Source: Parcubacteria group bacterium
Lineage (GTDB): Bacteria > Patescibacteriota > Minisyncoccia > Moranbacterales > UBA11712
Assembly (NCBI GenBank): GCA_041659685.1
Contig: JBAZXV010000002.1
Location: 39,527-103,526 of the forward strand
DNA: 64,000 nucleotides
Direction of reading: 5' to 3'
Within the stretch, counting starts at the first letter, position 1. Each line of letters begins with the position of its first letter. The notes beneath the pieces were generated by a model. The model saw only the letters and a program-made list of their open reading frames with translations. It did not search any database and was not told where the DNA came from. Made by a program: the position numbers and the translations under genes. Of this stretch, positions 21,565 through 53,718 are shown piece by piece.

Positions 21565-21750
21565 TGACAAATCAACCAAACGAGAAAAAAAGACCGACGG
21601 AAGAGCCTAAACCAGAGCCCTCCATCCCAGAAAGAGAAATTCCTGATTCTCCTCGCAGAGGGAGCGAACCACTCACGCCTGGAAGAGATGATAAAGGGCT
21701 GAATCCAAATGACATTTTTCCCGTTGAGGGAGGAGATAAAAAATAGATTT

Positions 21751-22989
21751 ATGTCAAAAGTCAGAGAAAAGCTAAAAGAAGAATGGATAAGAGTAAAGCT
21801 GGCAGATATAAGCCAGATAAAGAGAGGAGCATCTCCAAGACCAATTGGCGACCCTCGATATTTTTCAGATAAAGGAAGAGGTTGGATAAGAATATCCGAT
21901 GTATCAAAATCATATAAATATTTGAAAAGAACTAAACAATATTTATCTGAACTAGGAGAAGAGAGAAGTGTGAAGGTAGACAGAGGAGATTTAATTATGA
22001 GTATATGCGCTACGGTTGGCAAACCAATAATGATAAAAATACCAGCTTGTATTCACGATGGTTTTGTTTTGTTTGACAAATTGCATAAAAAAAAAGTTGA
22101 TACAGAGTTTCTTTTTTATGCTTTGCTAAATTCCGAGAATACATTTTTAGGAAGCGGGCAAACTGGCTCACAGAAAAACCTAAATACTACAATCGTAGGA
22201 AATACAGAAATTTTATTGCCTCCTATTTACAAGCAGAAAATAATCGCTGAAATTTTATCGAAGGTTGACGAGGATATCGAAAAAACGTGTGAGGTGATAA
22301 AAAAGTCGGAAAAAATAAAGAAGGGTTTAATGCGAGAACTTTTTACAAAAGGAATCGGACATAAAAAATTAAAAAAAACAAAATTGGGAATGATTCCTGA
22401 AGAGTGGGAGGTTTTATCACTAGGGGAAATGGGAATCTTTTCAAAAGGAAAAGGAATTTCAAAAAAAGAATTGATACCGACTGGTTTACCCGCAATACGA
22501 TACGGGGAAATATATACCAAGCATAATTTTATTATAAAAAAGTTTTATTCTTTTATATCTAAAAAAACAGCAAGTGAGAGCATTTCTATAAAAAAAGGCG
22601 ATATTCTGTTCACTGGTTCAGGAGAGACTCCAGAAGAAATTGGTAAATCTGTTGCATATTTAGGTGATGAGAAGGCGTATGCGGGGGGTGATATTATTAT
22701 ATTTTCGCCAAGTAAAGGCAACAGCCTCTTTTTGAGCTACCTCTTTAACAGTCCTTTGGTTAGAAATGATTTAACGAAATTGGGTCAGGGAAATTCAGTA
22801 GTGCATATGTATAAGGGGCTTCTGGAAAAAATAAAAGTTGCTATACCAAATATTGATGAACAAAATAATATCGCTGGAATCATTTCAAAGATTGATGAAA
22901 AAATTGATGGGTATAAAAAAACAAAGTCTAAACTTGAAACCCTCAAAAAAGGATTGATGCAGGATTTATTAAGTGCAAAAAATTTATGA
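21751..22989 (+). CDS. hsdS: Type I restriction-modification specificity subunit HsdS (two target-recognition domains)
   Basis: Canonical N-terminus EEWIRVKLADISQIKRGASP and central conserved LPPIYKQKIIAEILSKVDEDIEKT, with a repeated C-terminal LETLKKGLMQDLLS. The start is chosen at the ATG preceded by a GAGGGAGGAG Shine-Dalgarno sequence. The ORF track's alternative start is 21709. Confidence 0.85.
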   Translation: MSKVREKLKEEWIRVKLADISQIKRGASPRPIGDPRYFSDKGRGWIRISDVSKSYKYLKRTKQYLSELGEERSVKVDRGDLIMSICATVGKPIMIKIPACIHDGFVLFDKLHKKKVDTEFLFYALLNSENTFLGSGQTGSQKNLNTTIVGNTEILLPPIYKQKIIAEILSKVDEDIEKTCEVIKKSEKIKKGLMRELFTKGIGHKKLKKTKLGMIPEEWEVLSLGEMGIFSKGKGISKKELIPTGLPAIRYGEIYTKHNFIIKKFYSFISKKTASESISIKKGDILFTGSGETPEEIGKSVAYLGDEKAYAGGDIIIFSPSKGNSLFLSYLFNSPLVRNDLTKLGQGNSVVHMYKGLLEKIKVAIPNIDEQNNIAGIISKIDEKIDGYKKTKSKLETLKKGLMQDLLSAKNL

Positions 22990-37311: not shown

Positions 37312-38307
37312 ATGGATGAGAAGACAAAAAATCTAGTCGAAGAATTTCTGCTCAAATCCGAAGCGAAGGGAGAAATTTCTGACTCCACGGTCGTGAAGTA
37401 TCGAAGTCTCCTTCTTTACTTTTTCAAATTGATGGGCAAAAGCATTTTCAATTTGACGGCTGGAGACTTTGATAATTTCATAGTCCAGAAGAAGAATTAC
37501 GAAGAGAAGCCTGTCCTAGCTACAACGCTTCGAAACTACGCTTTCGCTCTTCGGAAATTCGTCGCTTATCTCAAAAAAAACGGCGTGGATTTGAAAATCG
37601 GTGCAAGCGATATTGAGATTCCCAAGGATAAGCGGAAGCGCAAGCCCGTTTATCTGACCGATGAAGAGGTGCTTCGTTTCCTTGCCGCTATTTCGGAAGA
37701 CGGGACTGAATTGCGTGTAGTTCGGTTCTATACTCTTGTTCAGCTCCTGCTTGATTCGGGGTCAAGAATCAGCGAAGCATTGTCCGTAAAGGTAAAAGAC
37801 ATTGACTGGGAGAAGCGGACGGTGGATATTGTCGGCAAGAATGACAAGGAGAGGACGCTTATGTTTGGAAGCGAAGCTGAACAATGGCTCAAACGATATT
37901 TGGCGAGGCGCAAGAGCGATAACGAGTATCTGTTCACTACGATAGACGGCAAGAGGCAATGGAAGAAGTTTGAGATTGATGACCTCTTTCGACGATACGC
38001 CAAGAAGGCTGGGATAACCAAGCAAACGACCGCCCACGCTATGCGCAGGACTTGTGCCACGCGGATGTTGCGCAGGGGTCTTAAAATCAACGATGTTTCA
38101 TATCTGCTGGGACACGCAGATTCGCAGACCACTCTAAAGTATTATATCGGCGTTCCCACTACAGACGAGTTGCGCGAGAAGATAACCGACGACTACTACA
38201 AGTTCGCTCCCGAATCGGAACTGAAAAGGCTCGGCTTTCAAAACAAGGCTGGTTTAGCTGGTGCGGGCGACGCTAATGATGATTTGCCCCATTGTCCCAA
38301 ATGGTAG
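37312..38307 (+). CDS. Tyrosine recombinase / integrase
   Basis: SRISEALSVKVKDI (box I) and HAMRRTCATRMLRRGLKINDVSYLLGHADSQTTLKYY (box II with catalytic Tyr). Confidence 0.8.
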   Translation: MDEKTKNLVEEFLLKSEAKGEISDSTVVKYRSLLLYFFKLMGKSIFNLTAGDFDNFIVQKKNYEEKPVLATTLRNYAFALRKFVAYLKKNGVDLKIGASDIEIPKDKRKRKPVYLTDEEVLRFLAAISEDGTELRVVRFYTLVQLLLDSGSRISEALSVKVKDIDWEKRTVDIVGKNDKERTLMFGSEAEQWLKRYLARRKSDNEYLFTTIDGKRQWKKFEIDDLFRRYAKKAGITKQTTAHAMRRTCATRMLRRGLKINDVSYLLGHADSQTTLKYYIGVPTTDELREKITDDYYKFAPESELKRLGFQNKAGLAGAGDANDDLPHCPKW

Positions 38308-38326
38308 CGTCGCCCGCGCCAGCTAA
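38254..38326. repeat. 22-bp near-perfect inverted repeat (TTAGCTGGTGCGGGCGACGCTA / TAGCGTCGCCCGCGCCAGCTAA) forming a long hairpin across the integrase stop codon
   Basis: One mismatch in 22 bp, 29-nt loop. Candidate terminator or att/recombination site. Confidence 0.5.
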
Positions 38327-38810
38327 ATGGTATAGCATCACTAAATAAATGAAATCAATCGAACGAAAATTTAAGGAGATTAAGGGAAAGAAGCCGTGGC
38401 TAAGTTCGCATAGTCATTTCGTCGAGGCGATAACGGGCAAGAGATTCAGCTCAAAGACAATGCGGATTTGGTTTTATAAACTTGTCGAAAAAGACGACTA
38501 CGACAAAAGCAACAAAAAAGAGGTGTTGGAATATCTGGAGTCGCGATTGAAACCTTTGAGGACGGAAAAAAACAGGGGGTAAAGGGGTCTAGGAGACGCG
38601 AAAAAAACGAAGACGGTGTATTTTGCATTCCAGGGAGATATGAAACGCTGGGCGCGAGAATAAAAAAATTGACAACTCGAAAATTTTTTGCTAGACTTCT
38701 TTTAGAAAGTGATGATATTTCCCAAAGATAATCAATTTTTTGCAATCGAGATTCGGTAAGTCGACTTGTCCACAATTCAAATTTTTGGCTTGTCCTAAGT
38801 CCGCCCCACT

Positions 38811-38946
38811 CACCTCCTTTCTAGGGAGATACGGTGAAAGAGTTGATGTTCAGCATCAACTTCTCAATCCTAAATGGTCGTTCGTTAGCCTTCGGGCTGA
38901 TGGATAAAATAGACTCAAAAGCATCAGGACAACCGCAAAAGTTTGC
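38811..38946 (+). repeat. R1 element copy b (hairpins AGTTGATG-TTCAG-CATCAACT, AGCC-TTCG-GGCT, CTGATG...CATCAG)
   Basis: Same conserved 5' (CACCTCCTTTCTAGGGAGATACGGTG) and 3' (GACAACCGCAAAAGTTTGC) ends as the other copies. Confidence 0.6.
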
Positions 38947-39074
38947 GAATAAAATTATGAAAGCATCAATTTGCCAAAAACACATGCATCAAATCAATCC
39001 TTCTTTCAAGGTTGGTTTTTGATGTGACTTTTTTGCATAGACACTAAAGACGAGCCCTGAAACGGGCTCGTCTT

Positions 39075-39971
39075 TTGAATTTCAACATTCTGGAGGAAAG
39101 AAAAATGAGTTCTTTGCAAAAATTTGTTTTGGGAATCCCGAATCCCGGCAGCAGCCTTTTTGATTCAACAGTTCAGCTGTTTAATAAAATTGGCGTGCAA
39201 GTTGCCTATAACGGGCGGGCCTTCGAGGGAGAGATTGAGGGCGTTGATATATTCGGTAAGGCATGTTTGATGCGCCCTCAGGATATTCCCAATGCTATCT
39301 CGAAAGGCACCCTCGATTGTGGCATCTGCGGGTGGGATTGTGTTGTGGAGAGCGGCTTAGAAAATAAGCTTGTGAAGATTTCTGAGCTGAATTACGGCAA
39401 GAAATTGACAAAACCTGTGAGGATTGTGGCTTTTTCAAGAAAATTCTCAACCCTTAAAGAAAATGAGAGTATTACCGTCACCACCGAATACCCCAACATT
39501 ACGAGGGCGGCTTTCAAAAACATTCCTCAGGAAAACATTGATTTTTCCTACGGGACTACGGAGGCAAAGGTTGCAGCAGGAATGTATGATTATGGGGTCT
39601 GCGTGACCGAAGGGGGGAAAAGCCTAATTGATAACAACCTGCAAATTGTTCGGGTGCTCTTGGTTTCACCGACCGTGTTCATGGCAAAACTCGAAGCACC
39701 GGAACTGGAAAGTTTCGGGAAGATGTTGGAAGGGGCATTGCTTGCGAAAAAATTACAACTCATCACAATGAATGCCGATGCAAGCGTGAAGGATGAGATA
39801 CTTTCGATTCTTCCCGCGCTAAAATCCCCAACGGTCAGCAGGTTGGAGGATGGGGGGTACAGCATTTCGACCGTAGTCGAAACTAAGGATGTGGCAAATC
39901 TCTTGCTCAAACTGAGACAGCTCGGAGCAGCGGGTATTATCGGAACTGATATCAACTTCGCTATCAAATGA
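39075..39971 (+). CDS. hisG: ATP phosphoribosyltransferase, long form (HisG)
   Basis: KFVLGIPNPGSSLFDSTVQLFNKIG and LMRPQDIPNAISKGTLDCGICGWDCVVESG match the HisG R..DIP..V..G..D.GI.G.D...E block. C-terminal regulatory domain present. Confidence 0.7.
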   Translation: MNFNILEERKMSSLQKFVLGIPNPGSSLFDSTVQLFNKIGVQVAYNGRAFEGEIEGVDIFGKACLMRPQDIPNAISKGTLDCGICGWDCVVESGLENKLVKISELNYGKKLTKPVRIVAFSRKFSTLKENESITVTTEYPNITRAAFKNIPQENIDFSYGTTEAKVAAGMYDYGVCVTEGGKSLIDNNLQIVRVLLVSPTVFMAKLEAPELESFGKMLEGALLAKKLQLITMNADASVKDEILSILPALKSPTVSRLEDGGYSISTVVETKDVANLLLKLRQLGAAGIIGTDINFAIK

Positions 39972-39984
39972 TTTATCACTAGAA

Positions 39985-40416
39985 TTGCCTGATGCCGTTC
40001 GCTTCCAAAAAATGGGAGATAAACCAATGAAATGTGAGAAGTGTGTGTCGAGGTGCGCATGGTGCAAAAAACCAATATGTGACAGGTGCAATTTTACTTC
40101 ACAGAGTTATCTATCGGAAAGGTACAGGAAATGGAGGGAAGTCAAAAAAATAGGGATAATAATTCTTCGTGAATACGAGGAAGAAACACGTTTCATCGGA
40201 TTTTGTTCTTTGCTCCTCGGGGATTTTGCCAGGCGGAATAACCTAATTGTGGAATGCAGAGTGAGAGATTCTCCGTTCCGCAATCAAAGAGTTCTTTATC
40301 TTCACTTAGAAGAGGGAGGTACGTGCCATACCTTAGAAATTTCCAAGAAAAAGAAAATAATTTCTTTCAGCTGGCATTTTCCCATCGAGATCCTTAGGAA
40401 TGTCGATGCCAGATAG
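39985..40416 (+). CDS. Hypothetical Cys-rich protein
   Basis: N-terminal CEKCVSRCAWCKKPICDRC cluster. Confidence 0.3.
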   Translation: MPDAVRFQKMGDKPMKCEKCVSRCAWCKKPICDRCNFTSQSYLSERYRKWREVKKIGIIILREYEEETRFIGFCSLLLGDFARRNNLIVECRVRDSPFRNQRVLYLHLEEGGTCHTLEISKKKKIISFSWHFPIEILRNVDAR

Positions 40417-40500
40417 GCCGGTTTGAAATCGGCAAGCCAGCCGCAGAACAGCCCGAAGCATTGCTCCGGGCTCTTACTTTTTGTTTGAATTCAGCCGCGG

Positions 40501-41157
40501 ATGCTATACAATGCTAATATGATCTATCTAATAGGCGGGCCGCCCAAATGCGGCAAAACAACACTGGCGAAAAAATTGTCCAAACATCTGGAAGTGCAAT
40601 GGATCTCAGCGGACACCTTGCAATCCATAGCTTTTGCATACACTGTGAAAAAAGATGTGCCAAAAAAGTTTCCATGGCGAGTCGCGAGGAAAAAGGCGGG
40701 CAGAGGCAATGACCTGGCATTCTCTGCATATTCTTCTGCTCAAATTGTCAGGAAGTACCGATCGCAAGCCAAAGCAACATGGCCAGCAATTGATATGGTT
40801 GCGGCATCGGAAATAAATGATAGGAATGACTATATAATCGAGGGTTATCAAGTCGAGCCCAGGCTGGCGGACAAGCTTACGAAGAAATACGGAAAGAAAA
40901 ACATTCGGACGATTTTTCTGATTCGAACCGACAAACAAACTTTATTAAAAGATATCAAGAAAAGCACAACACTGAATGATTGGATAAAGTCCAGGACGAA
41001 AAACGAGGAAACTTTTGGAAAAATAGCAGAGATGATATCCAGGTACGGCTTGGAGATCGGGAGGGAGACAAAAAAATATAAGATCCCGGCTTTAAACATG
41101 GATAAGAATTTTGAGGGACAAATAAGGGAAGTAATAAAATTCTTAAAACAGAATTAA
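40501..41157 (+). CDS. P-loop NTPase / small-molecule kinase-like protein
   Basis: Walker A IGGPPKCGKTTLAKKL. Confidence 0.5.
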   Translation: MLYNANMIYLIGGPPKCGKTTLAKKLSKHLEVQWISADTLQSIAFAYTVKKDVPKKFPWRVARKKAGRGNDLAFSAYSSAQIVRKYRSQAKATWPAIDMVAASEINDRNDYIIEGYQVEPRLADKLTKKYGKKNIRTIFLIRTDKQTLLKDIKKSTTLNDWIKSRTKNEETFGKIAEMISRYGLEIGRETKKYKIPALNMDKNFEGQIREVIKFLKQN

Positions 41158-41357
41158 TCGCAAAAACTTGCGATACTTTAGATAGCTGAAATAGGGATAA
41201 AACCCTGTTTCAGCGTTATCACCCAGGAGATGATTCATTTCAAGGGAGATTTTTGGAGTCCGCTTCGCTTGACTTCAGATTCGCTTGTTGATAGCATTTA
41301 ATGAGGCTAAAAAGGGGGATTCAGTCCCTTACAAACTAAAAGAAAAGGGGGCATATT

Positions 41358-41837
41358 ATGCCTGAAAAGCCAAATTATGACGTGTCAATTTACGGTGGTC
41401 GTCTTTTGACCTTAGATACAGTTGTCCCAGAGAAATATGTCTGGGAATTTATGAAGGAATTTGGGGAAGCTTGGGAAGTTGAAAAACAGGGGCTTCCTTT
41501 CAAATCCGTGGATGGCTATTATAAGCATCCTAATGGTTGGCACGTCCAGGTGAAAATTGGCGACATAGATGAAGAAAAGTTTTATAATTTCATCCGTGGA
41601 TTCTGTCAACAAAGAGGTCTTTCATTCCGTGAACCGACCAGATACCTTCTCGGTTTCTTGCGGACTTTGCGGCAGCTGGAGGAAAGAGCCAACAAGACCC
41701 CCGCACCAGACCTGCTGGATATTTTGCCGCCTAAGGATGAAATTGAGCGGCTTCTGCAAATCGCTCAACATCTAAATTTCCTCTACCTAAACCATCAGGG
41801 GTTCCAAATTACCGAAAAATACCAGAAGAAGGTTTAA
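41358..41837 (+). CDS. Hypothetical protein
   Basis: 159-aa ORF preceded by GGGGG Shine-Dalgarno-like sequence. Confidence 0.4.
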   Translation: MPEKPNYDVSIYGGRLLTLDTVVPEKYVWEFMKEFGEAWEVEKQGLPFKSVDGYYKHPNGWHVQVKIGDIDEEKFYNFIRGFCQQRGLSFREPTRYLLGFLRTLRQLEERANKTPAPDLLDILPPKDEIERLLQIAQHLNFLYLNHQGFQITEKYQKKV

Positions 41838-42132
41838 GGGGGGAGAATGGCAGCCTACACTGCGTGCATCAGTTATGGGCAGAGAAAAAGTCTGCTTTTT
41901 CCCTTGTGTGGTGCGAAGTCCTTCAGTGCTCGCTGTGCGACTGATGAAGAAGCCATTAGAACATTTCGAAGTATTGCCATCAAAGATTTCTTTTGCATGT
42001 TTCACAAAATCACGGTTGCAATACACCAGGGTCAGCGGTTTGTATTTGAAGGCTGCGTACAACCACTTTAACTTTCCAGGGCAACTGCCCAGCCAGGCTT
42101 TCACGAGTCTGGCTTTTTTCTTTCCAGATTTT

Positions 42133-42261
42133 TTTCTAGGGAGATACGGTTGAGAGCTCCGACTTATCGGAGTAAGAACCCATACAGTCGTTAGACTTCT
42201 TGGCAGCCCGCCTGCGCTCTTCTGAGCTACGGCGAGGCGAAGGACAACCGCAAAAGTTTGC
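42133..42261 (+). repeat. R1 element copy c (hairpin CTCCGA-CTTA-TCGGAG); left direct repeat of the Fic cassette
   Basis: About 111 bp near-identical to copy d at 44238-44350. Confidence 0.65.
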
Positions 42262-42296
42262 GGGTATTTTAATAGCAAGAGCACCTTCTTTACTGG

Positions 42297-42854
42297 GTGT
42301 TTTTCTGTTATTATTTCGATATGAACAAAATATATTTCATCAGTGGTGTTTGCGGCGTCGGGAAATCAACTATAATGCCTTATCTAAAATTATCGCTTCC
42401 TCAGAGTGAGTACAGGGTCTTCGATTTCGATGAAAGAGGCGTTCCTGAAAATGCCGACCGCAACTGGAGGATTTCTGAATCAAAACATTGGATTGAGGAA
42501 GGGAATAAATTGTTGCAAGAAAATATAAACACTGTTATTTGCGGCTTCATAAAACCTGATGACCTTCCGAATTCATCAGATGAAAAATCAGCTGAAATCA
42601 GACTGATTCTTTTGAATGCGGAACCAGAAATAATCCGCCAAAGACTTATAAAGCGATATACCAAAAACAATGTTTTTGACGAATCGCAAAAAGTAATCGG
42701 CAAACCAGTTAATGAGTTTATTGAGAGCAATGTTTATTTTTCCACGAATATGAGAGATATTTTCAAAGAACGAGGCTGTCTGATAGTGGATACTTCAAAT
42801 CTAACGCCCGAGGAAGTGGCAAGAGAAGTGGTAAATATTATCTTAAAAGACTGA
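42297..42854 (+). CDS. P-loop kinase-like ATPase (AAA_33/zeta-toxin-like fold), first gene of the Fic cassette
   Basis: Walker A ISGVCGVGKSTIMPYL. Confidence 0.5.
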   Translation: MFFCYYFDMNKIYFISGVCGVGKSTIMPYLKLSLPQSEYRVFDFDERGVPENADRNWRISESKHWIEEGNKLLQENINTVICGFIKPDDLPNSSDEKSAEIRLILLNAEPEIIRQRLIKRYTKNNVFDESQKVIGKPVNEFIESNVYFSTNMRDIFKERGCLIVDTSNLTPEEVAREVVNIILKD

Positions 42855-42888
42855 CTGCAAAAGTTTATAATAATCTTGCGCTTGCCGG

Positions 42889-42945
42889 TTTGTATACATC
42901 TGTTGACATAATGTATACAAACTACTATACTTTGTATACATTATT
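42889..42945 (+). promoter_or_regulatory. Three TTGTATACA palindromic repeats upstream of the fic start codon; candidate operator
   Basis: GTTTGTATACATCTGTTGACATAATGTATACAAACTACTATACTTTGTATACATTA. A TTGACA -35-like hexamer is embedded. Confidence 0.45.
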
Positions 42946-42964
42946 AATTGAATGTAAACAAACT

Positions 42965-44107
42965 ATGAAAAACATCAAAATTGGCTCGTATATAGCTCAA
43001 AAGGAAGGTTTTAAGGCTTTTACCCCCAATCCATTCCCTCCAAAGGGCGGCTTTGATTTTGAACCGAAAATTTCGAAAAAAAATGATGAAGCGACCCGAC
43101 TATTGGGAAAGCTGGATGGAATTACAAAACTGCTGCCTGATTCCGATTTCTTCCTTTTGATGTATCTGCGAAAAGATGCCGCATCTTCAAGTCAAATTGA
43201 AGGGACAAGGGCGTCTATGATAGACGCAATTGCCGCAGAAGCGGATATAGATACGAATATGCCAGAGGATGTAGACGACATATTGCATTACATCAAAGCT
43301 CTTAATTATGGAATGAAGCGGGTAACTGATGATAATTTTCCTATGACTTTGCGGTTTATTCGTGAGCTTCACAGACAGTTGATGCATAAAGCACGCTCAA
43401 CTCATTTTTCCGACCCTGGAGAATTTCGTAAAAGTCAAAATTGGATTGGCGGCACTCGTCCAGATAATGCTCGTTTTGTTCCGCCGTCTATCATTGATAT
43501 GCAAAAAGCTCTCGGTGATTTGGAAAAATTTATTCATACCGAGGATAATATCCCGACTGTGATCAAAGCAGGAATTATTCACGCCCAATTCGAGACTGTC
43601 CATCCTTTTTTGGATGGAAACGGCAGAACTGGCAGGATGCTAATTACTTTTTATCTTTGGAAAGAGGGATATCTGGAGAAGCCAGTGTTGTTTTTGTCTT
43701 CCTTTTTCAAAAAACACCAAAAACTTTATTACGAAAAACTTTTCGGCTACCACAACGGAAATATTTTCGAGTGGATAGATTTTTTTCTTGACGGTGTTAT
43801 TGAAATTGCCAATGAAGCCATAGATATCGTGGGAAAAATTACCATCCTGCGTCAAAAAGATATAATGAAAATCCAAAAATTGGGCAAGCGATCTTCTGAA
43901 AGCGGAGCCGTTGTTTTGCCGAAATTATACGGTCAGCCGATTGTGAATGCCAATGTTATCCAAAAGTGGACTGGATTTACTCGTGCTGGGGCGCAAACTG
44001 TAATCGACAGATTTATCAAAATGGGAATCCTGGTTCCTAAGGATAAAGACAAAAAATACGGACAGGCGTATATTTACAAGGAATATGTGGATATATTTAA
44101 CGAATAG
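42965..44107 (+). CDS. fic: Fic/Doc-family protein (AMPylation toxin family) with C-terminal winged-helix
   Basis: Canonical Fic motif VHPFLDGNGRTGR. The ORF track gives 42890 as the start. The ATG at 42965 (MKNIKIG) lies downstream of the operator repeats and is preferred. Confidence 0.8.
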   Translation: MKNIKIGSYIAQKEGFKAFTPNPFPPKGGFDFEPKISKKNDEATRLLGKLDGITKLLPDSDFFLLMYLRKDAASSSQIEGTRASMIDAIAAEADIDTNMPEDVDDILHYIKALNYGMKRVTDDNFPMTLRFIRELHRQLMHKARSTHFSDPGEFRKSQNWIGGTRPDNARFVPPSIIDMQKALGDLEKFIHTEDNIPTVIKAGIIHAQFETVHPFLDGNGRTGRMLITFYLWKEGYLEKPVLFLSSFFKKHQKLYYEKLFGYHNGNIFEWIDFFLDGVIEIANEAIDIVGKITILRQKDIMKIQKLGKRSSESGAVVLPKLYGQPIVNANVIQKWTGFTRAGAQTVIDRFIKMGILVPKDKDKKYGQAYIYKEYVDIFNE

Positions 44108-44183: not shown

Positions 44184-44350
44184 TTTCTGGGGAGATCTTT
44201 ATCCCGTAGTAAAGCATCAGCTTTTACTGCTGGGATAGTTGAGAGCTCCGATCTATCGGAGTAAGAACCCATACAGTCGTTAGACTTCTTGGCAGCCCGC
44301 CTGCGCTCTTCTGAGCTACGGCGAGGCGAAGGACAACCGCAAAAGTTTGC
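44184..44350 (+). repeat. R1 element copy d with an extra inserted hairpin (TATCCC...GGGATA); right direct repeat of the Fic cassette
   Basis: 3' 113 bp near-identical to copy c. 5' TTTCTGGGGAGAT conserved. Confidence 0.65.
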
Positions 44351-44508: not shown

Positions 44509-45732
44509 ATGTGCCATACTGACTTAATTCTATTCATATTTTCTTTTTCCATATTGCTTTTTGCGGCGATTGTTTTCGGTCGCTTGGCTCAAAAACTCAG
44601 AATGCCGAAAATAATAGGAGAACTCTTGGGAGGAATTGTGTTCGGGCCGACAATTTTGGGAACATTTTTTCCCGAGATTCAAACTTGGCTCTTTTCTTAT
44701 TCCGACTCGATTCTTGTTTCCAGAGATGTTCTGATAAAATTTGGTGCGATTCTGCTTCTTTTTGTAATCGGTCTGGAAGTCAATCTTTCCAAAATTAAAG
44801 AACTTAAAAAAACTATCGTTTGGACAAGCATCTTTGGTTCGGCATTTCCATTTATTTTAGGAGCAGCGTCTGTTTTTCTTTTTCCGAGAGTCTGGAATTA
44901 TATTCCTTCTGAAAACGAGTGGCTTTTGCCTTTGTTTATCGGAACTGCCCTGTCCATTTCCGCTCTTCCTGTTATTGCAAGGATTCTGATGGATTTGGGG
45001 ATACTTAAAAGCAAGGTCGGCTCAATTATCTTGGCTACCGCTACGATTGACGACATTGTCGGCTGGATTCTTTTTGCCCTCATTACTGCATATTTCGTTC
45101 CAGCGGGAGTCAGTCAGATAAATCCTCTGATAACGGTAGCTGTTGTTTTGGCGATGTTTTTCTTTGCTATTACTTATGGTAACAGATTAACCAAAAAATT
45201 TATTGCTTGGAGCGAAAAAATGGAAGACGGAGACAATATTTTTTTAGGATTAACCTTGGTTTTAGTCCTTGTTTTTTCCGCTTTGGCGGAACGAATCGGT
45301 ATTCACGCAGTTCTGGGAGCTTTTCTTGTCGGCTTGGCTTTTTCTAATTGCGAACCGCACAAAATGCACGACTCGCTTCGCAAAGTGGTGATGTCGGTTT
45401 TTTCTCCTTTGTATTTCGTTTCAGTCGGATTGGGAGTGAACCTAATCAAAAATTTCGATTTGACTTTGGCATTGATTGTCTTGGGAATTGCCATCATTGG
45501 AAAAGTTGGCGGAGTTTGGCTGGGAGCCAGAATATCCAAATTAAGCGACAGGGAATCACTGGCGATTGGATTCGGAATGAACGCCAGAGGAGCGGTGGGA
45601 ATTATTCTCGTCACCTCAGCCCATCAGGCGGGAATAATAGACGAGAGAGTGTATGTGGCTCTTTTGGTAATGGCGATATTGACCAGTCTTATCAGCGGTC
45701 CGATGATGAAAAAAATACTCCAAGGCGGGTAA
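44509..45732 (+). CDS. CPA2-family cation:proton antiporter (KefB/NapA-like Na+/H+ exchanger)
   Basis: About 12 TM helices with typical Na_H_Exchanger segments LGGIVFGPTILG, ATIDDIVGWILFALI, GMNARGAVGIIL. Confidence 0.7.
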   Translation: MCHTDLILFIFSFSILLFAAIVFGRLAQKLRMPKIIGELLGGIVFGPTILGTFFPEIQTWLFSYSDSILVSRDVLIKFGAILLLFVIGLEVNLSKIKELKKTIVWTSIFGSAFPFILGAASVFLFPRVWNYIPSENEWLLPLFIGTALSISALPVIARILMDLGILKSKVGSIILATATIDDIVGWILFALITAYFVPAGVSQINPLITVAVVLAMFFFAITYGNRLTKKFIAWSEKMEDGDNIFLGLTLVLVLVFSALAERIGIHAVLGAFLVGLAFSNCEPHKMHDSLRKVVMSVFSPLYFVSVGLGVNLIKNFDLTLALIVLGIAIIGKVGGVWLGARISKLSDRESLAIGFGMNARGAVGIILVTSAHQAGIIDERVYVALLVMAILTSLISGPMMKKILQGG

Positions 45733-45934: not shown

Positions 45935-46144
45935 ATGAAAAAAATGGAACAAGATGAAAAGGAAAACTTCGAAAAAGAAGCATCGGAGGCAGTCAAGAAA
46001 AGAATTCTTGATAATCTCTCATCTAATAGAAATTGGAGGAGCTGGGGTTCCTGGTTCAGCTGGGGCTCGCCCGTGGGACTGGGATTATTCCTAATCTCCA
46101 TCGGTATCTTCATTCTTCTTCTGCATTATTCGGGAATTTTCTAG
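45935..46144 (+). CDS. Small Trp-rich single-TM protein (69 aa)
   Basis: WRSWGSWFSWGS followed by a TM helix. A hairpin/T-run terminator follows at 46163-46195. Confidence 0.35.
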   Translation: MKKMEQDEKENFEKEASEAVKKRILDNLSSNRNWRSWGSWFSWGSPVGLGLFLISIGIFILLLHYSGIF

Positions 46145-46195: not shown

Positions 46196-46510
46196 CTACT
46201 CCGGAGCGGACAACTCGTCCGTTTTGACCCGAAACACTTTCTGCGGAACTATCATCCAGAAAGCATTTCCTTAAATACGTATTTTAATACTTACCTCGGT
46301 AAGTATTTTTTTTGGCCGAAGCACCTAGCACTAACACCGCCCTGCAATGTTTTTAATATGCTTGAAAAAACAGAATAAAACCCTGTTTTTTTTCGAAGCC
46401 ATCGACACAGGCGGATAGAACTGAATCGGTAAGCGATTTTAATGCATATAGGCCTTCGGACATAAGCAAATAATGATGTATAATAGAGCCAGGACATTTT
46501 GGAATAACTT

Positions 46511-49500
46511 ATGTTTATAGAAGTAAAATCCGAGGAGAGGAAAATAGGGCCGGAATCAGTTGAACAGATGGAAAGCGCGGAAACTATTGCCAAAGAGAAG
46601 ACGCCGGAAGAACAGCGGGCAGAGAATATTGAACTCATGACTCAAAGAGCCAGGCATTTTATTGCGGAAAAAAAAGCCGAAAAGGAGAAAAAAAATGCCC
46701 GCAGGGAACTGGAATCCGTTCCGCAGGATGTAGACCGGCCGGAAGGGCGGCAGAATGAAGAAGCGGAAGATGCACAAGAAAAACCGGGAGAGCAGAAGGG
46801 AATCATTTCAGGATTGAAAGATAAATACAGGCTATGGAAGCTGAAGCGGAGCGGATTTCCTGATCCCGGGAAAGCCTTGGGATTTTTTGAATATATAAGC
46901 AGCAGGGCAGATTCAACTTTAAAATTCGACAGCGACACCCTGAATCTGATAAGGGATACATTCAGAGCGACAAACGACCCGATTGCTTTTTATGAAAAAA
47001 TAAAGCAGCTGAACTTAAAGATCGCGCAGCCGATTATCAAACCCAATTACGGCTTAGGAACTTTGATGAGGGATCCGGATATATTTAAGAAGCTTGACCT
47101 TTGGCAGTCAGTCAATGAATCACTGGGATTTGGCGATGCAAATTCTTCGGGAGACGATCTCAGATATTTTTGCGGAGAAACCGAACTGCACGCCGGATTA
47201 TCCGCTGAAAATTTGAACCGGATCAGTCAATTGCGGAATTTATCGGGGTCGCTTTTTTCTGTGAGCGATCTGAACTGGCTGGCAAATTGCGTGGAGGACA
47301 GGCATACTTTTGAGTCGTTGGGAAAACTCTTGGGAAGTGAATATGCAAAAAACCTCAGAGACAAAAATATACTCAGAGTGGAAGACTTGGCAAAAAAACT
47401 GAAAGATCTCGACGCGAGCGGAATGACAGAGAGTCTGTTAATCGGAGCCGATATGAATTTGGATGTCGGGAGCGCCATAAGAGAGCTGACCTCCGAAGAT
47501 GAAGAAGAAAAAGCGGCGAGTGTCGAAAAAACAAAGGCATTGGAGCTGGAAGAACGAGCGAAAGACGAAAAATTCCGGGAGCTCGCCGGGGATCTCTCGC
47601 TCTTTTCCGGAAAGGATTTTGGAATAAATGAATACCAAAAATTGGAGAGCCTTTACCAATGGCACAAGGATTACGCGCTGGCTTTTGCGCAAGCTTTTGA
47701 GGATTTGGGTATCCTTAATCGATCCCAGGAAGGAACACTAAACCTTGAAGAATTCGAAGACACCCTGGGCCATTGGAAAAATGAGGCCGGATATGGCAGT
47801 CCGGAAGTTTTTTTCGCCCTTCTGGATCCTTCGTTCAATGAAATGATCTCAATTTTGAAAAGAGAGAAAGGCGACTTCAAGACAAGGGATATATTCAGAT
47901 ATGCTTTCCTGTATGCCCGAGAGCCGGAAGTCATTAAATCTTTGGAATCGGATGAAGGCAAAGAACTCCTGCAATTTTTTACGGAACGCGGAATGGATTT
48001 TCTGGGACACGCAGAATTTTTTAAGCATCCCGGAATTGCCAAAATGCTCAAAGGATATGATGAATTTTTTGATATTCAAAAAGGTTGGTCGCTAGACGGA
48101 TTTTTGGAGTTGTATAATCGAGGTGAGACGGCCAATGAATTATTAGATTACCTGAAAGAAAATAAATTCAAACCGGATGGAAAATTTGAGATCAATAAAA
48201 TCCCGCTTCTCGTTAAAATTCACAGCATCAAGGATTCCATCGATGCCGAATACTTCAGGAAATATCCCAATTTTTTTCTCAGCGAAAAGACTGTGGACTT
48301 TATAATAAGCGATCCAAGCAAAGCTCCCGACGTTTTTTCCTTGGCCGAAGACGGCTATCTTGAAGGGCAGAATTTCCAATCCATAAGGTGGTTTCTTCAA
48401 GACAACCTTGAAGACATTCTTGCTATTCCCCGTGAAAAAAGAGACACATATATGAAGCTTTACCGCCGATTGGACGGCTCTCCTTCTCAGGAGATACAAC
48501 GGCTGAAAAAAGAGCTTACCAGGGAACTGTTGAAACTGGATGAACCGGAAAGTGCATACCAGAGAATAGAAGAAATATTTATCACGAACAATTTGCCGCC
48601 GGTCGGAAAGATTTATAAAGTATTTGCGGTAATTCATTCTCCTGCCGCAATGCAAGAACTCCTGGAAAGCAACGACAGGCTTAGTCCGTGTCTCAGGGAG
48701 TCTTCGGTGAGAAAAAGATATACTACAATATACAGAGATCTTTTGAACATTCACATCAAGTCCGGGAACCGGATTCTGAGAGATTATCTGGAAGTCGCGA
48801 ATGAGGGACAGGGCATCTTCGACAAGATGGAAACAGAGGGCGAGGAAAGCCTGAATAATGAAGAGAGGAGAAAGGCGGAATTTGTCCTGAAAAAACTGAA
48901 AACGCTGTGGGAAAATTCATCGCGAGGGATGCGAATGGATCCAAACAATCTCAGCATAAACGACGGGCTTGGCAATTTTTATAATAATTTGAAGACATCA
49001 ATAGGTGCCAAGGAAGGGCAGACGGTCACGGCCCGAATTTCCCAAATGTTTTTAGCGCCTGCCGGATACCAAAGCATAGAGCACGTGTTGGCCGCAATGA
49101 ATGAAGCCAAAGGAAAGGCCGGCACGCGCGGTCTCGAAACGGCAGATCTCCTGCGAAAAGGAGAATTTAATATCAAGGCGGGAGATGTCATCAAAGGCAT
49201 GCCATCTGGCAGGATGGGAGCAATCTTGCAGGGCGGAGCGGTGGCAGGAGAATATTTAGGCAGTGAATCATCATCGGATTCCACTCCTTATGACTCCGAT
49301 GTTTTCAGGGTGTCTGATTTAGGGGGAAATGCGGATTTTTCGGAAAATATCAAAAAATATTTTGGTGAGGGATACGGAGATGTCAATATTATTGTAAGAG
49401 ACAGGGGCCAATTCGACGAAACTTCCAAAGGAAGCTCCAGGGGGTATGATCCTTCCAAGCTGGAACTGTTCAGAACCGGAGTGATTTCGAACGAACATTA

Positions 49501-50587
49501 CGGGATTCGGACCGGCTTTCCTTCAAGTGAGATAGACTTGATGGTTGTCAGCGAAAACACCAAACAAGATGAAAAAAGGATGTCAAAGCTCTTTTTTGAT
49601 ATCGCCGAAAACGGATTTTATATCCCCGTTGCTGATACTTCCGGGAAATTGATTTTTAGTCCGGAGCAATATGAAGAATACCGAAGAATATTCAGAGGCC
49701 TGGAAAGATTTGATGGAAACAAGTTTGAATATCTGAACACGAAAGAAGGCGATCAAAACTACGATGAGGTGGAGAGGATTCGAAGGGAATTCAAAGAGGA
49801 TAGGGACCGCGTTGCGGCTCTGTCTCAGAAAATTAGAGACATGATAACCGACGTGTTGCGACAGCACGAAGTCACGTTGCGGGATAATCTGGACAACAGC
49901 ATCTTAGGCGCCGAACTAATGGACATAGGGTCCACGGCGAGGCATACTAATGCGATCGGGGATTATGATTTTGACCTGACTTTGCGGCTGGATGACCGGG
50001 ACATGGACAAAATAGGTGATATTGTCCGGGACCTCCAGGCCGGATTGCAGGCTGAAAGTTATTCAGATTCTCACGGAGATGAAAAAGGTGGCTACCAATT
50101 GAGGGCTAAACAGGGCCGCTTGTCCGGAGAAAATCCGGCGGATATCGACATTGGCTTTGTCCGCAAGTCCGACCTCGTTTATTTCGGATCTCACGAAGCC
50201 GTGCAGGAGCGTTTGGATTGGATAAAAAATAATATTAGCGAAGAGGCTTATGAAAAAACGATTGCGAACGTTATTCTGGCAAAAAAAATTCTGAAAGAAG
50301 GCAAAGCTTATAAGCGCGTGGAAGACGGCGGGATGGGCGGCATCAGTGTTGAGAATTGGATATTGCTCAACAGCGGCAATCTTGTCGAAGCATTCAGAAC
50401 TTTTTTGGCTGCTGCGATCGATGAAAACGGAACCCAGGTTCCGTTGGATGAATTCAAGCAGAAATACAAGATCCTTAATCCGGGAATGAATCTCAAAAAG
50501 CTTTATCATGACAATTATACGATGAATTTGAAGGAAGGGGGATATAACGCAATGATAAAAACCATTGAAAATTATCTCAAAGGTTGA
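46511..50587 (+). CDS. Giant (1358 aa) acidic protein with C-terminal Pol-beta-superfamily nucleotidyltransferase domain; candidate secreted/effector NTase (AMPylase-like)
   Basis: N-terminal charged coiled coil. At about aa 1140, MDIGSTARHTNAIGDYDFDLTLRL is the hG[GS]-x9-13-DhD NTase motif. A downstream third acidic strand ADIDIGFVRK. About 47% GC. Confidence 0.6.
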   Translation: MFIEVKSEERKIGPESVEQMESAETIAKEKTPEEQRAENIELMTQRARHFIAEKKAEKEKKNARRELESVPQDVDRPEGRQNEEAEDAQEKPGEQKGIISGLKDKYRLWKLKRSGFPDPGKALGFFEYISSRADSTLKFDSDTLNLIRDTFRATNDPIAFYEKIKQLNLKIAQPIIKPNYGLGTLMRDPDIFKKLDLWQSVNESLGFGDANSSGDDLRYFCGETELHAGLSAENLNRISQLRNLSGSLFSVSDLNWLANCVEDRHTFESLGKLLGSEYAKNLRDKNILRVEDLAKKLKDLDASGMTESLLIGADMNLDVGSAIRELTSEDEEEKAASVEKTKALELEERAKDEKFRELAGDLSLFSGKDFGINEYQKLESLYQWHKDYALAFAQAFEDLGILNRSQEGTLNLEEFEDTLGHWKNEAGYGSPEVFFALLDPSFNEMISILKREKGDFKTRDIFRYAFLYAREPEVIKSLESDEGKELLQFFTERGMDFLGHAEFFKHPGIAKMLKGYDEFFDIQKGWSLDGFLELYNRGETANELLDYLKENKFKPDGKFEINKIPLLVKIHSIKDSIDAEYFRKYPNFFLSEKTVDFIISDPSKAPDVFSLAEDGYLEGQNFQSIRWFLQDNLEDILAIPREKRDTYMKLYRRLDGSPSQEIQRLKKELTRELLKLDEPESAYQRIEEIFITNNLPPVGKIYKVFAVIHSPAAMQELLESNDRLSPCLRESSVRKRYTTIYRDLLNIHIKSGNRILRDYLEVANEGQGIFDKMETEGEESLNNEERRKAEFVLKKLKTLWENSSRGMRMDPNNLSINDGLGNFYNNLKTSIGAKEGQTVTARISQMFLAPAGYQSIEHVLAAMNEAKGKAGTRGLETADLLRKGEFNIKAGDVIKGMPSGRMGAILQGGAVAGEYLGSESSSDSTPYDSDVFRVSDLGGNADFSENIKKYFGEGYGDVNIIVRDRGQFDETSKGSSRGYDPSKLELFRTGVISNEHYGIRTGFPSSEIDLMVVSENTKQDEKRMSKLFFDIAENGFYIPVADTSGKLIFSPEQYEEYRRIFRGLERFDGNKFEYLNTKEGDQNYDEVERIRREFKEDRDRVAALSQKIRDMITDVLRQHEVTLRDNLDNSILGAELMDIGSTARHTNAIGDYDFDLTLRLDDRDMDKIGDIVRDLQAGLQAESYSDSHGDEKGGYQLRAKQGRLSGENPADIDIGFVRKSDLVYFGSHEAVQERLDWIKNNISEEAYEKTIANVILAKKILKEGKAYKRVEDGGMGGISVENWILLNSGNLVEAFRTFLAAAIDENGTQVPLDEFKQKYKILNPGMNLKKLYHDNYTMNLKEGGYNAMIKTIENYLKG

Positions 50588-50605: not shown

Positions 50606-50626
50606 GGGACAACCGCAAAAGTCTGC
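50606..50626 (+). repeat. Partial R1 3'-end copy e (GGGACAACCGCAAAAGTCTGC) immediately after the giant-gene stop, followed by two hairpins
   Basis: Matches only the conserved 3' end of R1. Hairpins GCTATA/TATAGC and GACAGG/CCTGTC follow. Confidence 0.45.
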
Positions 50627-50989
50627 TATAGCTTCGTATAGCGGAGACAGGGGTAAGGTCCTGTCCCAATGAGCCTTTTTATATTAAAAACAAATCCAGA
50701 GATGATTTCAAAACAGCTCTCGATTTCTGGTGCAATCACGCTTTGGTTTATGATTCAAAGGCAATGGATTATGCCTTCGAATCTTCGGTAATTTGCGGGG
50801 TTGATTTCGGGCATACCACGCCGATAATTACTTTTCCGATAGGAGGCAAAGCGAAACTTATGGCAGGAAAAGACGGCATAAAGCTGGAAATTATCGAGCA
50901 TTGATCTGAAAGCATAGCTTTATATATCGCAGATAATCATGACAGTTATATAAAGTATTTATCCGAAACTAGCAAAATACTATTAAAAA

Positions 50990-51748: not shown

Positions 51749-52240
51749 ATGTGGGTTGCTATCAGTGGAAGCTGGAGAAGGATCAACGGGGCGGTGAAAC
51801 GGGATGTGGAGACAACAGTGAGTCAGATATTGTCCCGCGGAGACGGAATAGTTTCAGGAGGTTTTCCCGGGGTCGATTATGTCGCGACCGTAAAAGCGCT
51901 CCGGCATTGTCCCAATGCCGAGAAAATAAGAATCATTCTTCCCGTCACGCTGGAGCTCTATGCTCTGCAATATGCCGATTGGGTGGGGGAAGGGGCCGTT
52001 AGCGACAGGCAGGCCCGGTCGGTTCTTATGCAGCTTTCGGAGCTGAAAGAAATCAACCCGAGGTCCATTGTGGAAAATAGAAATAGCGCGCTAGCTTGCT
52101 GTTCTGGCCGCAATACGGCTATGATTCGGCGGGCTGACTCCCTGGAGGCGTTCTATATTAACTTGAGCAAAGGCGAAGATACCATTAACACTGCTTTCGC
52201 CAAGGGAATTCCCGTCAGAGTCAGGACCTACGCGATATAA
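51749..52240 (+). CDS. Rossmann-fold DprA/Smf/LOG-like (SLOG superfamily) small protein
   Basis: GIVSGGFPGVDYVATVKAL resembles the DprA vvSG.A.GID..aH..AL motif. Confidence 0.4.
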   Translation: MWVAISGSWRRINGAVKRDVETTVSQILSRGDGIVSGGFPGVDYVATVKALRHCPNAEKIRIILPVTLELYALQYADWVGEGAVSDRQARSVLMQLSELKEINPRSIVENRNSALACCSGRNTAMIRRADSLEAFYINLSKGEDTINTAFAKGIPVRVRTYAI

Positions 52241-52695: not shown

Positions 52696-53718
52696 ATGAC
52701 AAAAATCAATTTTTCAAAGGTTTCTTCCGGAGCAGAAGGAACGAGTTTTAAAGCAATAAAGCGGTTTATCGACGACAATTTTCTTCACTTCAATGCTGCG
52801 GCGCTCAAAGACGCTTCGCAAGGATACATTGATCATTTGGAAAGAGGCGGAAAAATGATGGTGACCCTCGCAGGAGCAATGAGTACGGCGGAACTTGGCA
52901 TTACGCTCTCCGAAATGATCCGGCAGGACAAGATTAACGCAATCACCTGCACTGGAGCAAATCTCGAAGAGGATATTTTCAATTTGGTCGCCCATGAACA
53001 TTACAAGCGAGTTCCAAATTACAGGGATTTGTCCCCGGAGGACGAAGAAAGGCTCTTCAGCGAAAAATTCAATCGGGTGACGGACACTTGTATTCCGGAA
53101 GAGGAAGCGATGAAGCGGATTGAAGTGCAGATGTGGGATTTGTGGCAGGCGGCCGATAGCGCGGGAGAAAGACTGTTTCCTTATGAATATATGTACCAGT
53201 TGCTTCGTTCGGGCCGTCTCGAAAAATATTTTCAGATCAATCCGAAAAACTCTTGGCTGCTCGCGGCCGCGGAGAAAAATCTGCCAATCTTCGTTCCCGG
53301 CTGGGAAGATTCGACGCTGGGCAATATGTTTGTCGCCTTTGTCAGGAGGGAAAAGGTTTCAGGATTCCAAATTGTAAAAAGCGGAACGGAAACAATGGAT
53401 TTTCTTGTGGATTGGTATTTGGAGAATACAAAAAGAAGTTCTATCGGATTTTTTCAGATCGGCGGCGGCATTGCGGGTGATTTTCCGATTTGCGTTGTTC
53501 CGCTGATTCAGCAGGACTTGAAAGAAGATTGCCGTCTCTGGGGATATTTTTGCCAGATTTCTGACAGCACAACATCCTATGGATCATACAGCGGGGCTGT
53601 TCCGAACGAGAAAATTACCTGGGGAAAGCTCGGAAAAGACACTCCGCGATTTGTAATTGAAAGCGATGCCAGCATTGTCGCGCCGCTTATGTTCGCGTAC
53701 ATACTTGGAAGAAACTGA
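52696..53718 (+). CDS. Deoxyhypusine synthase-like protein (DHS family)
   Basis: ITCTGANLEEDIFNL matches the TTAGGVEEDL block of deoxyhypusine synthases. Glycine-rich GGGIAGDFP NAD-binding region. Confidence 0.7.
   Translation: MTKINFSKVSSGAEGTSFKAIKRFIDDNFLHFNAAALKDASQGYIDHLERGGKMMVTLAGAMSTAELGITLSEMIRQDKINAITCTGANLEEDIFNLVAHEHYKRVPNYRDLSPEDEERLFSEKFNRVTDTCIPEEEAMKRIEVQMWDLWQAADSAGERLFPYEYMYQLLRSGRLEKYFQINPKNSWLLAAAEKNLPIFVPGWEDSTLGNMFVAFVRREKVSGFQIVKSGTETMDFLVDWYLENTKRSSIGFFQIGGGIAGDFPICVVPLIQQDLKEDCRLWGYFCQISDSTTSYGSYSGAVPNEKITWGKLGKDTPRFVIESDASIVAPLMFAYILGRN

Follow-up and report, generated by a model that had tools for sequence, protein, structure and literature searches.

A 1358-aa protein encoded in a 64,000-nt stretch of Parcubacteria DNA (the window) ends in a module, conserved across a large family, that joins an ADP-ribosyltransferase (ART)-fold domain to a bilobed Pol-β-superfamily nucleotidyltransferase (NTase) of the CCA/PAP/TUT type. 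A limited full-text literature search found no description of such a fusion, and the combination looks new. We tentatively favor the view, plausible from the relatives of the two domains, that the protein is a soluble cytoplasmic multidomain enzyme that would use NAD+ and NTPs and act on the ends of nucleic acids, probably RNA. The preliminary description recognized the NTase and proposed a secreted AMPylating effector partnered with a nearby Fic protein; it overlooked the ART-fold domain, whose presence changes the functional picture. An ART-fold domain joined to an RNA-tailing-type NTase makes nucleic-acid modification inside the cell the likelier function.

The ORF (Table 1) is intact and its product acidic (D+E 241 vs. 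K+R 192), as first described, with charged residues making up 45% of the first 100 aa; its GC content, initially given as ~47%, measures 44.5%, compared with 40% for the whole window. The product is identical to the NCBI entry [quoted passage not shown] from a Parcubacteria MAG, and the full-length query has no significant match among Pfam, NCBIfam, or PDB sequences.

Table 1. Features of the giant ORF and its surroundings, in window coordinates.
Feature	Position (nt)	Strand	Basis or remark
Complete ORF, 1358 aa + stop	46511..50587	+	ATG start, no interruption
Promoter-like site CGGACA-16-TATAAT	46457..46484	+	27 nt 5' of ATG; consensus match only
Variable N-terminal region, aa 1-640	46511..48430	+	First ~100 aa highly charged
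All-helical domain, aa 641-885 (245 aa)	48431..49165	+	Opens family-wide module; conservation and AF2 model
ART-fold domain, aa 886-1065	49166..49705	+	Structural matches and conservation
Bilobed Pol-β NTase, aa 1066-1358	49706..50584	+	AF2 model, Foldseek, conservation
69-aa Trp-rich ORF, hydrophobic tail	45935-46144		Upstream
Fic gene	42890-44107	Same as giant ORF	2.4 kb upstream
113-nt direct repeat (R1), two full copies	42149-42261, 44238-44350		98% identity
R1 3' core GGACAACCGCAAAAGTCTGCTAT	50606-50629	+	Directly after giant ORF stop codon
LD-carboxypeptidase remnant	~50700-50905		Beyond R1 core; both features exist

A word-indexed homologue search with the full-length protein returned a single relative, probably because the low-complexity N-terminus crowded the candidate list; repeated with a C-terminal alignment, the search uncovered a family defined by a conserved C-terminal module of ~720 aa behind variable N-termini. 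A cutoff of E≤1e-3 yields 1074 cluster representatives (50% identity) and one of E≤1e-30 yields 688; almost every one matches the whole module, located at its C-terminus. Members are found in 337 species genomes, mostly of Patescibacteria, plus gut "Bacilli" MAGs, and record titles place them chiefly in Patescibacteria and other MAGs with small genomes; the scanned IMG/VR viral contigs contain no member. The family has no significant match to any Pfam, NCBIfam, or PADLOC model, and a limited full-text search found no paper describing it. A very large fraction of patescibacterial proteins is unannotated, and an unnamed family with more than 1000 clusters at 50% identity here gains a concrete two-enzyme assignment.

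Residues 1-640 are conserved in only the ~9-10 closest relatives and contain no transmembrane (TM) segment, signal peptide, or Pfam domain. Across the family, N-termini diverge fast and split into many BLAST clusters, and a Pfam search of the 23 longest members revealed no recurrent N-terminal domain; we presume that this region serves targeting or regulation. The module that follows was modeled with AF2 (aa 641-1358; pLDDT 89.6, pTM 0.89). Its helical domain carries the near-invariant motifs S657-P-S659-x-E661 and N693-x-x-P696-x-x-x-K700, together with D743, S751, and R873, and residues 641-1065, part of the ~900 aa initially thought to lack motifs, are strongly conserved family-wide and contain the ART-fold domain. 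Near-invariant polar residues across ~190 divergent members argue that the ART-fold and NTase domains are both under selection as enzymes. In at least four members (P0032, P0039, P0043, and L078) the NTase is replaced by an HD-like tail with H..HD..H..D motifs that matches Pfam HD weakly (E 8.7e-3).

The C-terminus is, on the strength of the model, a Pol-β-superfamily NTase, as the preliminary description held: fold comparison finds the minimal NTase α/β fold in aa 1066-1358, arranged as a long N-terminal helix, a catalytic lobe, and a helical lobe, and homologues retain the motif residues. The reported G-S-x11-D-x-D motif lies within MDIGSTARHTNAIGDYDFDLTL at aa 1137-1158 (nt 49919-49984), with G1140-S1141 separated by 11 residues from D1153-x-D1155, and the reported downstream acidic strand DIDIGFV at aa 1211-1217 supplies the third carboxylate, D1213. 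Of the 188 members that cover this part of the alignment, all have G1140, S1141, and D1153, 187 have D1155, and 185 have D1213, so the motif is real rather than a chance match. The helical lobe carries K1258, Y1267, K1268, and GGxGGxxxE1281-N-W. A Foldseek search with the modeled module matched 1r89, a CCA-adding enzyme, at E 1.2e-4; CdnG and OAS1 (14.0 and 13.5 in the structural comparison) ranked below RNA-tailing enzymes.

These matches bear directly on the proposal that the protein is a GlnE/DrrA-type AMPylase working as a functional pair with Fic. In its favor are the conserved motif and third acidic residue, the Fic gene that indeed lies nearby, and Fic-domain genes within ~2 genes of the family gene at two other loci, L042 and L055. 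The fold, however, is of the bilobed CCA/PAP/TUT/OAS type, GlnE, GlnD, and DrrA are not among the structural matches listed, and no GlnE-family Pfam or NCBIfam model matches. The two other loci are the only ones of 84 with a Fic-motif ORF, and their Fic subtypes differ; clustering of neighbors across 85 homologous loci revealed no recurring partner gene. Locally, a Na+/H+ exchanger gene and, by reading of the sequence, terminator-like hairpins separate Fic from the giant ORF, and the AAA+Fic gene pair is bracketed by the R1 repeats like an inserted cassette, which suggests independent insertion and makes the Fic adjacency look incidental. In the explanation we favor, the protein is no protein AMPylase of the GlnE/DrrA type and its proximity to Fic is fortuitous; a functional AMPylation pair is very improbable. 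Other flanking features of the preliminary description are present: the small Trp-rich membrane protein corresponds to the upstream 69-aa ORF, and the downstream R1 3' fragment, which represents the last ~22 nt of the repeat, is one of five same-strand copies in the window.

The other half of the module was recognized from structure. Fold comparison of the model indicates a split β-sheet ART fold in aa 886-1065, and this domain most resembles the lobe of the RNA 2'-phosphotransferase Tpt1/KptA that binds NAD+, and DarT, an ssDNA thymidine ADP-ribosyltransferase; nearly all of the ~30 matches ranked next are ARTs. Its conserved residues are D892, K895, D923, T925, P926, D928, D930, E985, H996, R1000, T1001, G1002, Y1037, P1039, and R1058. 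In a weak hhalign alignment, Lys895 occupies the first catalytic position, canonically His or Arg (the His of the Tpt1 H-G-T), and the conserved Y955, E985, and H996 are candidate catalytic residues relative to the H-Y-E/R-S-E triad. PDB profile searches begun from either the ART-like domain or the entire module returned no matches, PF01885 matched none of 34 members even at E≤1, and hhalign comparison of the ART-like profile with E. coli KptA and with a 98-KptA alignment, itself shallow in that the listed KptA homologues are all ≥59% identical to the query, gave E values of 0.24 and 0.035 with a probability below 2%.

We infer a nucleic-acid substrate because nucleic acids are what the closest relatives of both domains act on, Tpt1 and DarT for the ART and CCA/PAP/TUT for the NTase. 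We posit that the two domains share this substrate, most likely an RNA such as tRNA: the ART-like domain would catalyze NAD+-dependent modification, or removal, of a group on it, the NTase would extend or rebuild its 3' end with NTPs, and the overall outcome would be RNA-end healing or marking. If both domains act on RNA, they would provide minimal-genome organisms with a new pathway for processing or marking RNA ends. Several observations weigh against an RNA-repair reading: a long, fast-evolving N-terminus is unexpected for a housekeeping RNA-repair enzyme, the surroundings in the window are rich in restriction-modification (R-M), integrase, and SoFic genes, the ART-like domain has no significant sequence-profile link to Tpt1, and Lys895 replaces the canonical His/Arg. 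It is possible, but doubtful, that the family represents a new class of bifunctional enzyme, specific to ultra-small bacteria that depend on a host (Patescibacteria and reduced gut Bacilli), in which NAD+ chemistry and the addition of nucleotides without a template are coupled on a single substrate via an ART-fold reaction not yet described. The unorthodox ART site, with Lys for His/Arg and an invariant Asp cluster, would carry out this reaction; the enzyme might (i) attach to RNA ends, or take off them, a mark linked through ADP-ribose or phosphate or (ii) make a new NAD-derived nucleotide signal. A site rich in Lys and Asp could enlarge the range of reactions known for the ART fold.

The genomic setting invites another explanation, a single-protein conflict or anti-phage system in which the N-terminus would sense an invader and either a CD-NTase/OAS-like signal or ART-like ADP-ribosylation or NAD+ depletion would block phage or cell growth, by analogy with DarT, CmdT, and CBASS. 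The giant ORF sits at the edge of a region that holds Type I and Type III R-M genes, two integrases, and the SoFic cassette; the N-termini diverge rapidly; two copies reside in one gut MAG (L052, L073); and DarT-like and CmdT-like ARTs are defence toxins acting on DNA or mRNA (PMC11618068). A PADLOC "Cyclase" match at aa 1122-1187 points the same way but is below significance (E 0.0094, 13.6 bits), and no Cap-type effector gene lies nearby. Moreover, the 148 flanking ORFs in 40 homologous loci are mainly housekeeping (aaRS, topoisomerase, alanine racemase, SecDF, GreA) with scattered defence matches, macro-domain families are absent from their most frequent Pfam families, and none of the 85 loci reveals a conserved antitoxin-like or macro-domain partner. 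We consider a defence role unlikely.

Export is harder still to reconcile with the family. An episymbiont effector or toxin, delivered into a host bacterium without a Sec signal, could use the ART-like and NTase domains to modify host proteins or nucleic acids, and the concentration of the family in Patescibacteria and small-genome MAGs, as well as its large, variable, unannotated N-terminal regions, would suit such a role. Yet a simple hydropathy scan found a signal-peptide-like N-terminus in none of 176 complete members and a TM-like stretch in only seven, the 1358-aa protein itself reaching a maximum 19-residue hydropathy of 1.04, and no immunity-like or secretion-system gene is conserved beside the family gene. 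Members keep their C-terminus constant and vary their N-terminus, the reverse of polymorphic toxins, and among ARTs it is Tpt1 and DarT, which act on nucleic acids, rather than protein-targeting toxins that match best. Translocation is thus quite improbable, and the reading of the locus as two AMPylators and a secreted effector is unsupported.

An intracellular enzyme acting on nucleic-acid ends, the reading we favor, can be set against several known systems. The NTase resembles the archaeal class I CCA-adding enzyme (A. fulgidus, PDB 4x4n/1r89) in its G-S...D-x-D...D catalytic lobe and helical second lobe, the head and neck of class I enzymes, and in having K1258 and Y1267 as a Lys-x8-Tyr pair and GGxGG...E-N-W as a Gly-rich segment, which seem to resemble the triphosphate-binding K152/Y161 and "GFSGY" region of AfCCA. 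In contrast to AfCCA, it aligns over only ~215 of 436 residues with no sequence-level match, lacks the tRNA-binding body and tail domains, the protein ending ~290 aa after the NTase start, and is preceded in one polypeptide by a long N-terminus, a helical domain, and an ART-fold domain. A housekeeping CCA-adding enzyme is ruled out, since the family occurs in only 337 species genomes, a minority, and is devoid of tRNA-binding domains. Canonical PAP and the non-canonical poly(A) polymerases/TUTs (Cid1, TUT7, GLD-2, URT1, CutA) share the bilobed fold but are eukaryotic, lack detectable sequence similarity, and occur in another domain context; compared with CBASS CD-NTases and OAS/cGAS, the protein has no adjacent Cap effector or regulatory genes, and its match to a CD-NTase model is insignificant.

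On the ART side, a strand-helix "x-G-x ... I-L-x-x-G" segment aligns with the H-G-T helix of Tpt1/KptA, with Lys in place of the His. The winged-helix RNA lobe of Tpt1/KptA is absent, the preceding domain being all-helical, and the phosphate-binding Arg-His-Arg-Arg tetrad is missing. The invariant acidic cluster D923/D928/D930 leads into strand 2, whereas E. coli KptA, by reading of its sequence, has Arg before the corresponding strand; such a cluster speaks against a nucleophilic phosphate, barring the participation of a metal. DarT and the mRNA ART CmdT are only 9-10% identical to the domain, which belongs to a multidomain protein accompanied by neither a DarG or macro-domain antitoxin nor a chaperone. 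Bacterial class II CCA-adding enzymes join an NTase to an HD domain with 2',3'-cyclic phosphodiesterase and phosphatase activity, and a minority of the family carries an HD-like domain instead of the NTase. RlaP (PF10127) is a characterized Pol-β NTase dedicated to RNA repair (PMC12776372). We propose an analogy with both, an NTase acting on RNA 3' ends combined with an end-healing activity; in this family the NTase belongs to another class without sequence homology, and the healing partner would be an NAD+-dependent ART-like domain.

The giant ORF is uninterrupted from its ATG start and encodes an acidic protein of 1358 aa (D+E 241 versus K+R 192; charged residues make up 45% of aa 1–100), identical to one annotated as hypothetical in a Parcubacteria-group MAG. 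Its GC content is 44.5% (40% for the window) rather than the 47% or so given in the preliminary description, and a promoter-like site lies 27 nt 5′ of the ATG. With this protein as the query, neither Pfam nor NCBIfam nor the PDB sequences gave a significant match. A distant homolog, P0002, is 29% identical, aligns only over aa 642–1358, and retains the G-S...D-x-D signature; the C-terminal alignment of the two proteins served as the query for a second round of searches, in which a word-indexed search recovered 47 relatives, with no Pfam domain among them, and an exhaustive HMMER search recovered 1074 cluster representatives at E≤1e-3 (688 at E≤1e-30). In nearly all of the 150 HMMER matches listed, the whole module of ~750 columns is present at the C-terminal end of the protein. 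The extensions that precede it range from 5 to 2342 aa (median 724) and fall into many BLAST clusters with no recurrent Pfam domain, and aa 1–640 of the giant-ORF protein are recognizable in only about 9–10 close relatives. A 793-aa homolog, P0004 (L004:8001-10382), begins inside or beside an IS (rve transposase) gene (L004:7211-8020), and its short N terminus probably results from truncation by the IS insertion.

The motif MDIGSTARHTNAIGDYDFDLTL (aa 1137–1158) and the downstream acidic strand DIDIGFV (aa 1211–1217), previously read as the signature of a nucleotidyltransferase (NTase), are both present, and the motif proves genuine when 193 family members are aligned to the module profile and near-invariant positions are sought: G1140, S1141, R1144, T1146, D1153, D1155, D1213, K1258, Y1267, K1268, E1281, and a GGxGG segment stand out in the NTase. 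The stretch before it, said to carry no motifs, is conserved just as strongly, with near-invariant positions in the helical region, aa 641–885 (S657, S659, E661, N693, P696, K700, D743, S751, R873), and in aa 886–1065 (D892, K895, G909, E914, D923, T925, P926, D928, D930, E985, H996, G998, R1000, T1001, G1002, Y1037, P1039, R1058). The putative active sites of both catalytic folds are thus conserved.

An AlphaFold2 model of aa 641–1358 was built from 49 sequences (pLDDT 89.6, pTM 0.89). Foldseek against the PDB places the archaeal class I CCA-adding enzyme 1r89 first (E 1.2e-4), followed by yeast PAP, Cid1/TUT4, NF90/NF45, CdnC/CdnE/CdnD, and cGAS; the scored structural matches of the NTase are the A. 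fulgidus CCA-adding enzyme (15.8), Cid1 (15.3), PAP-alpha (15.2), TUT7 (14.6), NF90 (14.5), CdnG (14.0), OAS1 (13.5), and CdnC (13.3). GlnE, GlnD, and DrrA, to which the domain had been likened, are absent from the structural matches listed, and the predicted NTase is therefore of the bilobed CCA/PAP/TUTase/OAS/CD-NTase type.

The model gives aa 886–1065 an ADP-ribosyltransferase (ART) fold. Its nearest structural relatives are Tpt1 and DarT, which, like the CCA/PAP/TUT relatives of the NTase, are nucleic-acid enzymes; later in the ranking are SopF, OspC3, CteC, heat-labile enterotoxin, Scabin, pertussis toxin, and PARPs. At the profile level, no link to Tpt1 emerges: Pfam finds no match to this domain in 34 members at E≤1, and hhalign scores are not significant against either E. 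coli KptA (E 0.24) or a 98-sequence KptA alignment (E 0.035). The short, nonsignificant hhalign alignments set K895-G896 on the KptA H-G-T and the next helix on a KptA helix, in agreement with the fold match. The domain thus has an ART fold, yet belongs to neither the Tpt1 nor the DarT family.

Some members (P0032, P0039, P0043, and a Peribacteria locus, L078:7294-8000) end the module after the ART-like domain and have no NTase. In its place is an HD-like tail of ~210 aa with H..HD..H..D motifs (LHD[LIV]GKP, QHEYT, DAGSYT); Pfam HD matches one of three tails scanned, weakly (E 8.7e-3), and the tail profile has a weak match (E 0.3) in the HD region of 3wfo, the class II A-adding enzyme of Aquifex. 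The constant core of the family is thus the helical and ART-like pair, joined at the C terminus by a domain that processes nucleotides or phosphates. The family lies outside all Pfam, NCBIfam, and PADLOC models, and neither it nor any fusion of an ART with a CCA/PAP-type NTase is described in the full-text literature covered, which leaves most subscription-journal papers outside. Both catalytic folds are already well known; what looks new in this undescribed family is the way it combines them, and its ART active site is atypical.

A scan that took a single genome from each GTDB species finds relatives in 337 stretches. Judged by the record titles of the best 80 of these, the Patescibacteria carriers include Saccharibacteria, Uhrbacteria, Magasanikbacteria, Paceibacterota, Zambryskibacteria, Moraniibacteriota, Komeilibacteria, Nomurabacteria, Taylorbacteria, and Peribacteria. 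About 30 of the 80 are gut MAGs titled "uncultured Bacilli" (many of loci L047–L085) from human Hadza, rabbit, mouse, and roe deer hosts, and one MAG, MGBC165900, has two copies (L052 and L073). In several third-party bins titled "uncultured Gammaproteobacteria", the copies are closest to those of Patescibacteria, and IMG/VR viral contigs contain no relative. A signal-peptide-like N terminus, expected of the secreted effector proposed earlier, is found in 0 of 176 complete members, and a TM-like stretch in 7; a translocated effector, delivered by a route that needs no Sec signal, is an improbable reading.

Conserved partners are likewise lacking. Clustering of ORFs from 85 loci yields no neighbor family in more than five, and three homologs examined individually have unrelated, housekeeping neighbors. 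Across 40 loci, 148 ORFs flanking the family gene were scanned with Pfam and PADLOC; most are housekeeping genes (aaRS, topoisomerase, alanine racemase, SecDF, GreA, TGT), and defense matches are scattered (HerA, mad3/mad8, WYL, and Fic in two ORFs). A single-protein defense or conflict system, in which CD-NTase/OAS-like and DarT-like logic would be combined, is an unlikely alternative, though a more credible one than translocation.

In the window itself, the region before the giant ORF is rich in defense and mobility genes (see the table): Type III and Type I R-M systems and two tyrosine recombinases lie in the 30 kb upstream, and an Rfam LOOT RNA match follows just 3′ of the first integrase. 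The Fic protein is a PADLOC SoFic match (E 2.7e-106), and a 113-nt direct repeat with 98% identity flanks its gene together with that of an AAA-ATPase. The 22- to 23-nt 3′ core of this repeat, GGACAACCGCAAAAGTYTGCTAT, recurs in five intergenic copies, with 0 expected by chance, and contains the palindrome GCAAA-AG-TTTGC; the last copy, directly past the giant-ORF stop codon, is the "R1 3′ fragment" noted before and is real. The two recombinase genes lie nearby, and the element may serve in recombination, mark a cassette boundary, or have a regulatory role. Given the bracketing repeats and nearby mobility genes, the Fic gene looks like an independently inserted cassette, and its proximity to the giant ORF is no evidence of common function. 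Fic-motif (HPFL[DE]GNGR) ORFs occur near a family gene in only two other, unrelated loci (L042:1647-2498, 283 aa; L055:2731-3279, 182 aa), about two genes upstream; they differ in subtype and are too few for a conserved link, so that the Fic-paired AMPylase proposed in the preliminary description is hardly tenable.

Downstream of the giant ORF, an LD-carboxypeptidase remnant without a start reads as a pseudogene fragment, and a 163-aa ORF may be a truncated gene because its DprA match is weak and partial.

Features of the window
Feature	Position	Remarks
Region rich in defense and mobility genes	7450-29049	
Type III R-M	9626-11179; 11972-14236	methylase; Res
GGACAACCGCAAAAGTYTGCTAT core copies	15113; 38927; 42242; 44331; 50607	+ strand
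Tyrosine recombinases	15207-16295; 37312-38307	
LOOT RNA	16667-16797 (+)	58.2 bits, above gathering score
Type I R-M	19314-20798; 21709-22989; 26128-29049	HsdM; HsdS; HsdR
Region rich in defense and mobility genes	37312-44107	
P-loop/AAA-type genes	40501-41157; 42297-42854	second, AAA-ATPase beside Fic
113-nt direct repeat	42149-42261; 44238-44350	
Fic gene	42890-44107	SoFic
Na+/H+ exchanger gene	44509-45732	
Small Trp-rich ORF	45935-46144	69 aa, hydrophobic tail; as described before
Giant ORF	46511-50587 (+)	
LD-carboxypeptidase C-terminal remnant	~50700-50905 (+)	...VDFGHTTPIITFPIGGKAKL...; Peptidase_S66C, E 2.2e-4; between giant ORF and DUF218 gene
163-aa ORF	51749-52240	DprA profile positions 47-96, E about 0.007-0.009
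Deoxyhypusine-synthase-family gene	52696-53718	PF01916, E 6e-41

We tentatively posit that the family protein is a cytoplasmic enzyme that would use NAD+ and NTPs to modify or heal nucleic-acid ends, probably those of RNA. This reading is favored by the substrates of the structural relatives, by the alternation of NTase and HD-like tail, and by the existence of dedicated RNA-repair NTases such as RlaP (PMC12776372); what speaks against it is an ART site that is acidic and unorthodox, an N terminus that evolves fast, and the defense-rich setting of the gene in this window. The winged-helix lobe and Arg-His-Arg-Arg tetrad of Tpt1 are missing, and an invariant Asp cluster leads into strand 2, whereas in the KptA sequence an Arg precedes the matching strand. 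The NTase, in turn, is without the body and tail domains of CCA-adding enzymes. The alternation of NTase and HD within the family is reminiscent of bacterial CCA-adding enzymes of class II, in which the HD domain is responsible for 3′-end healing.
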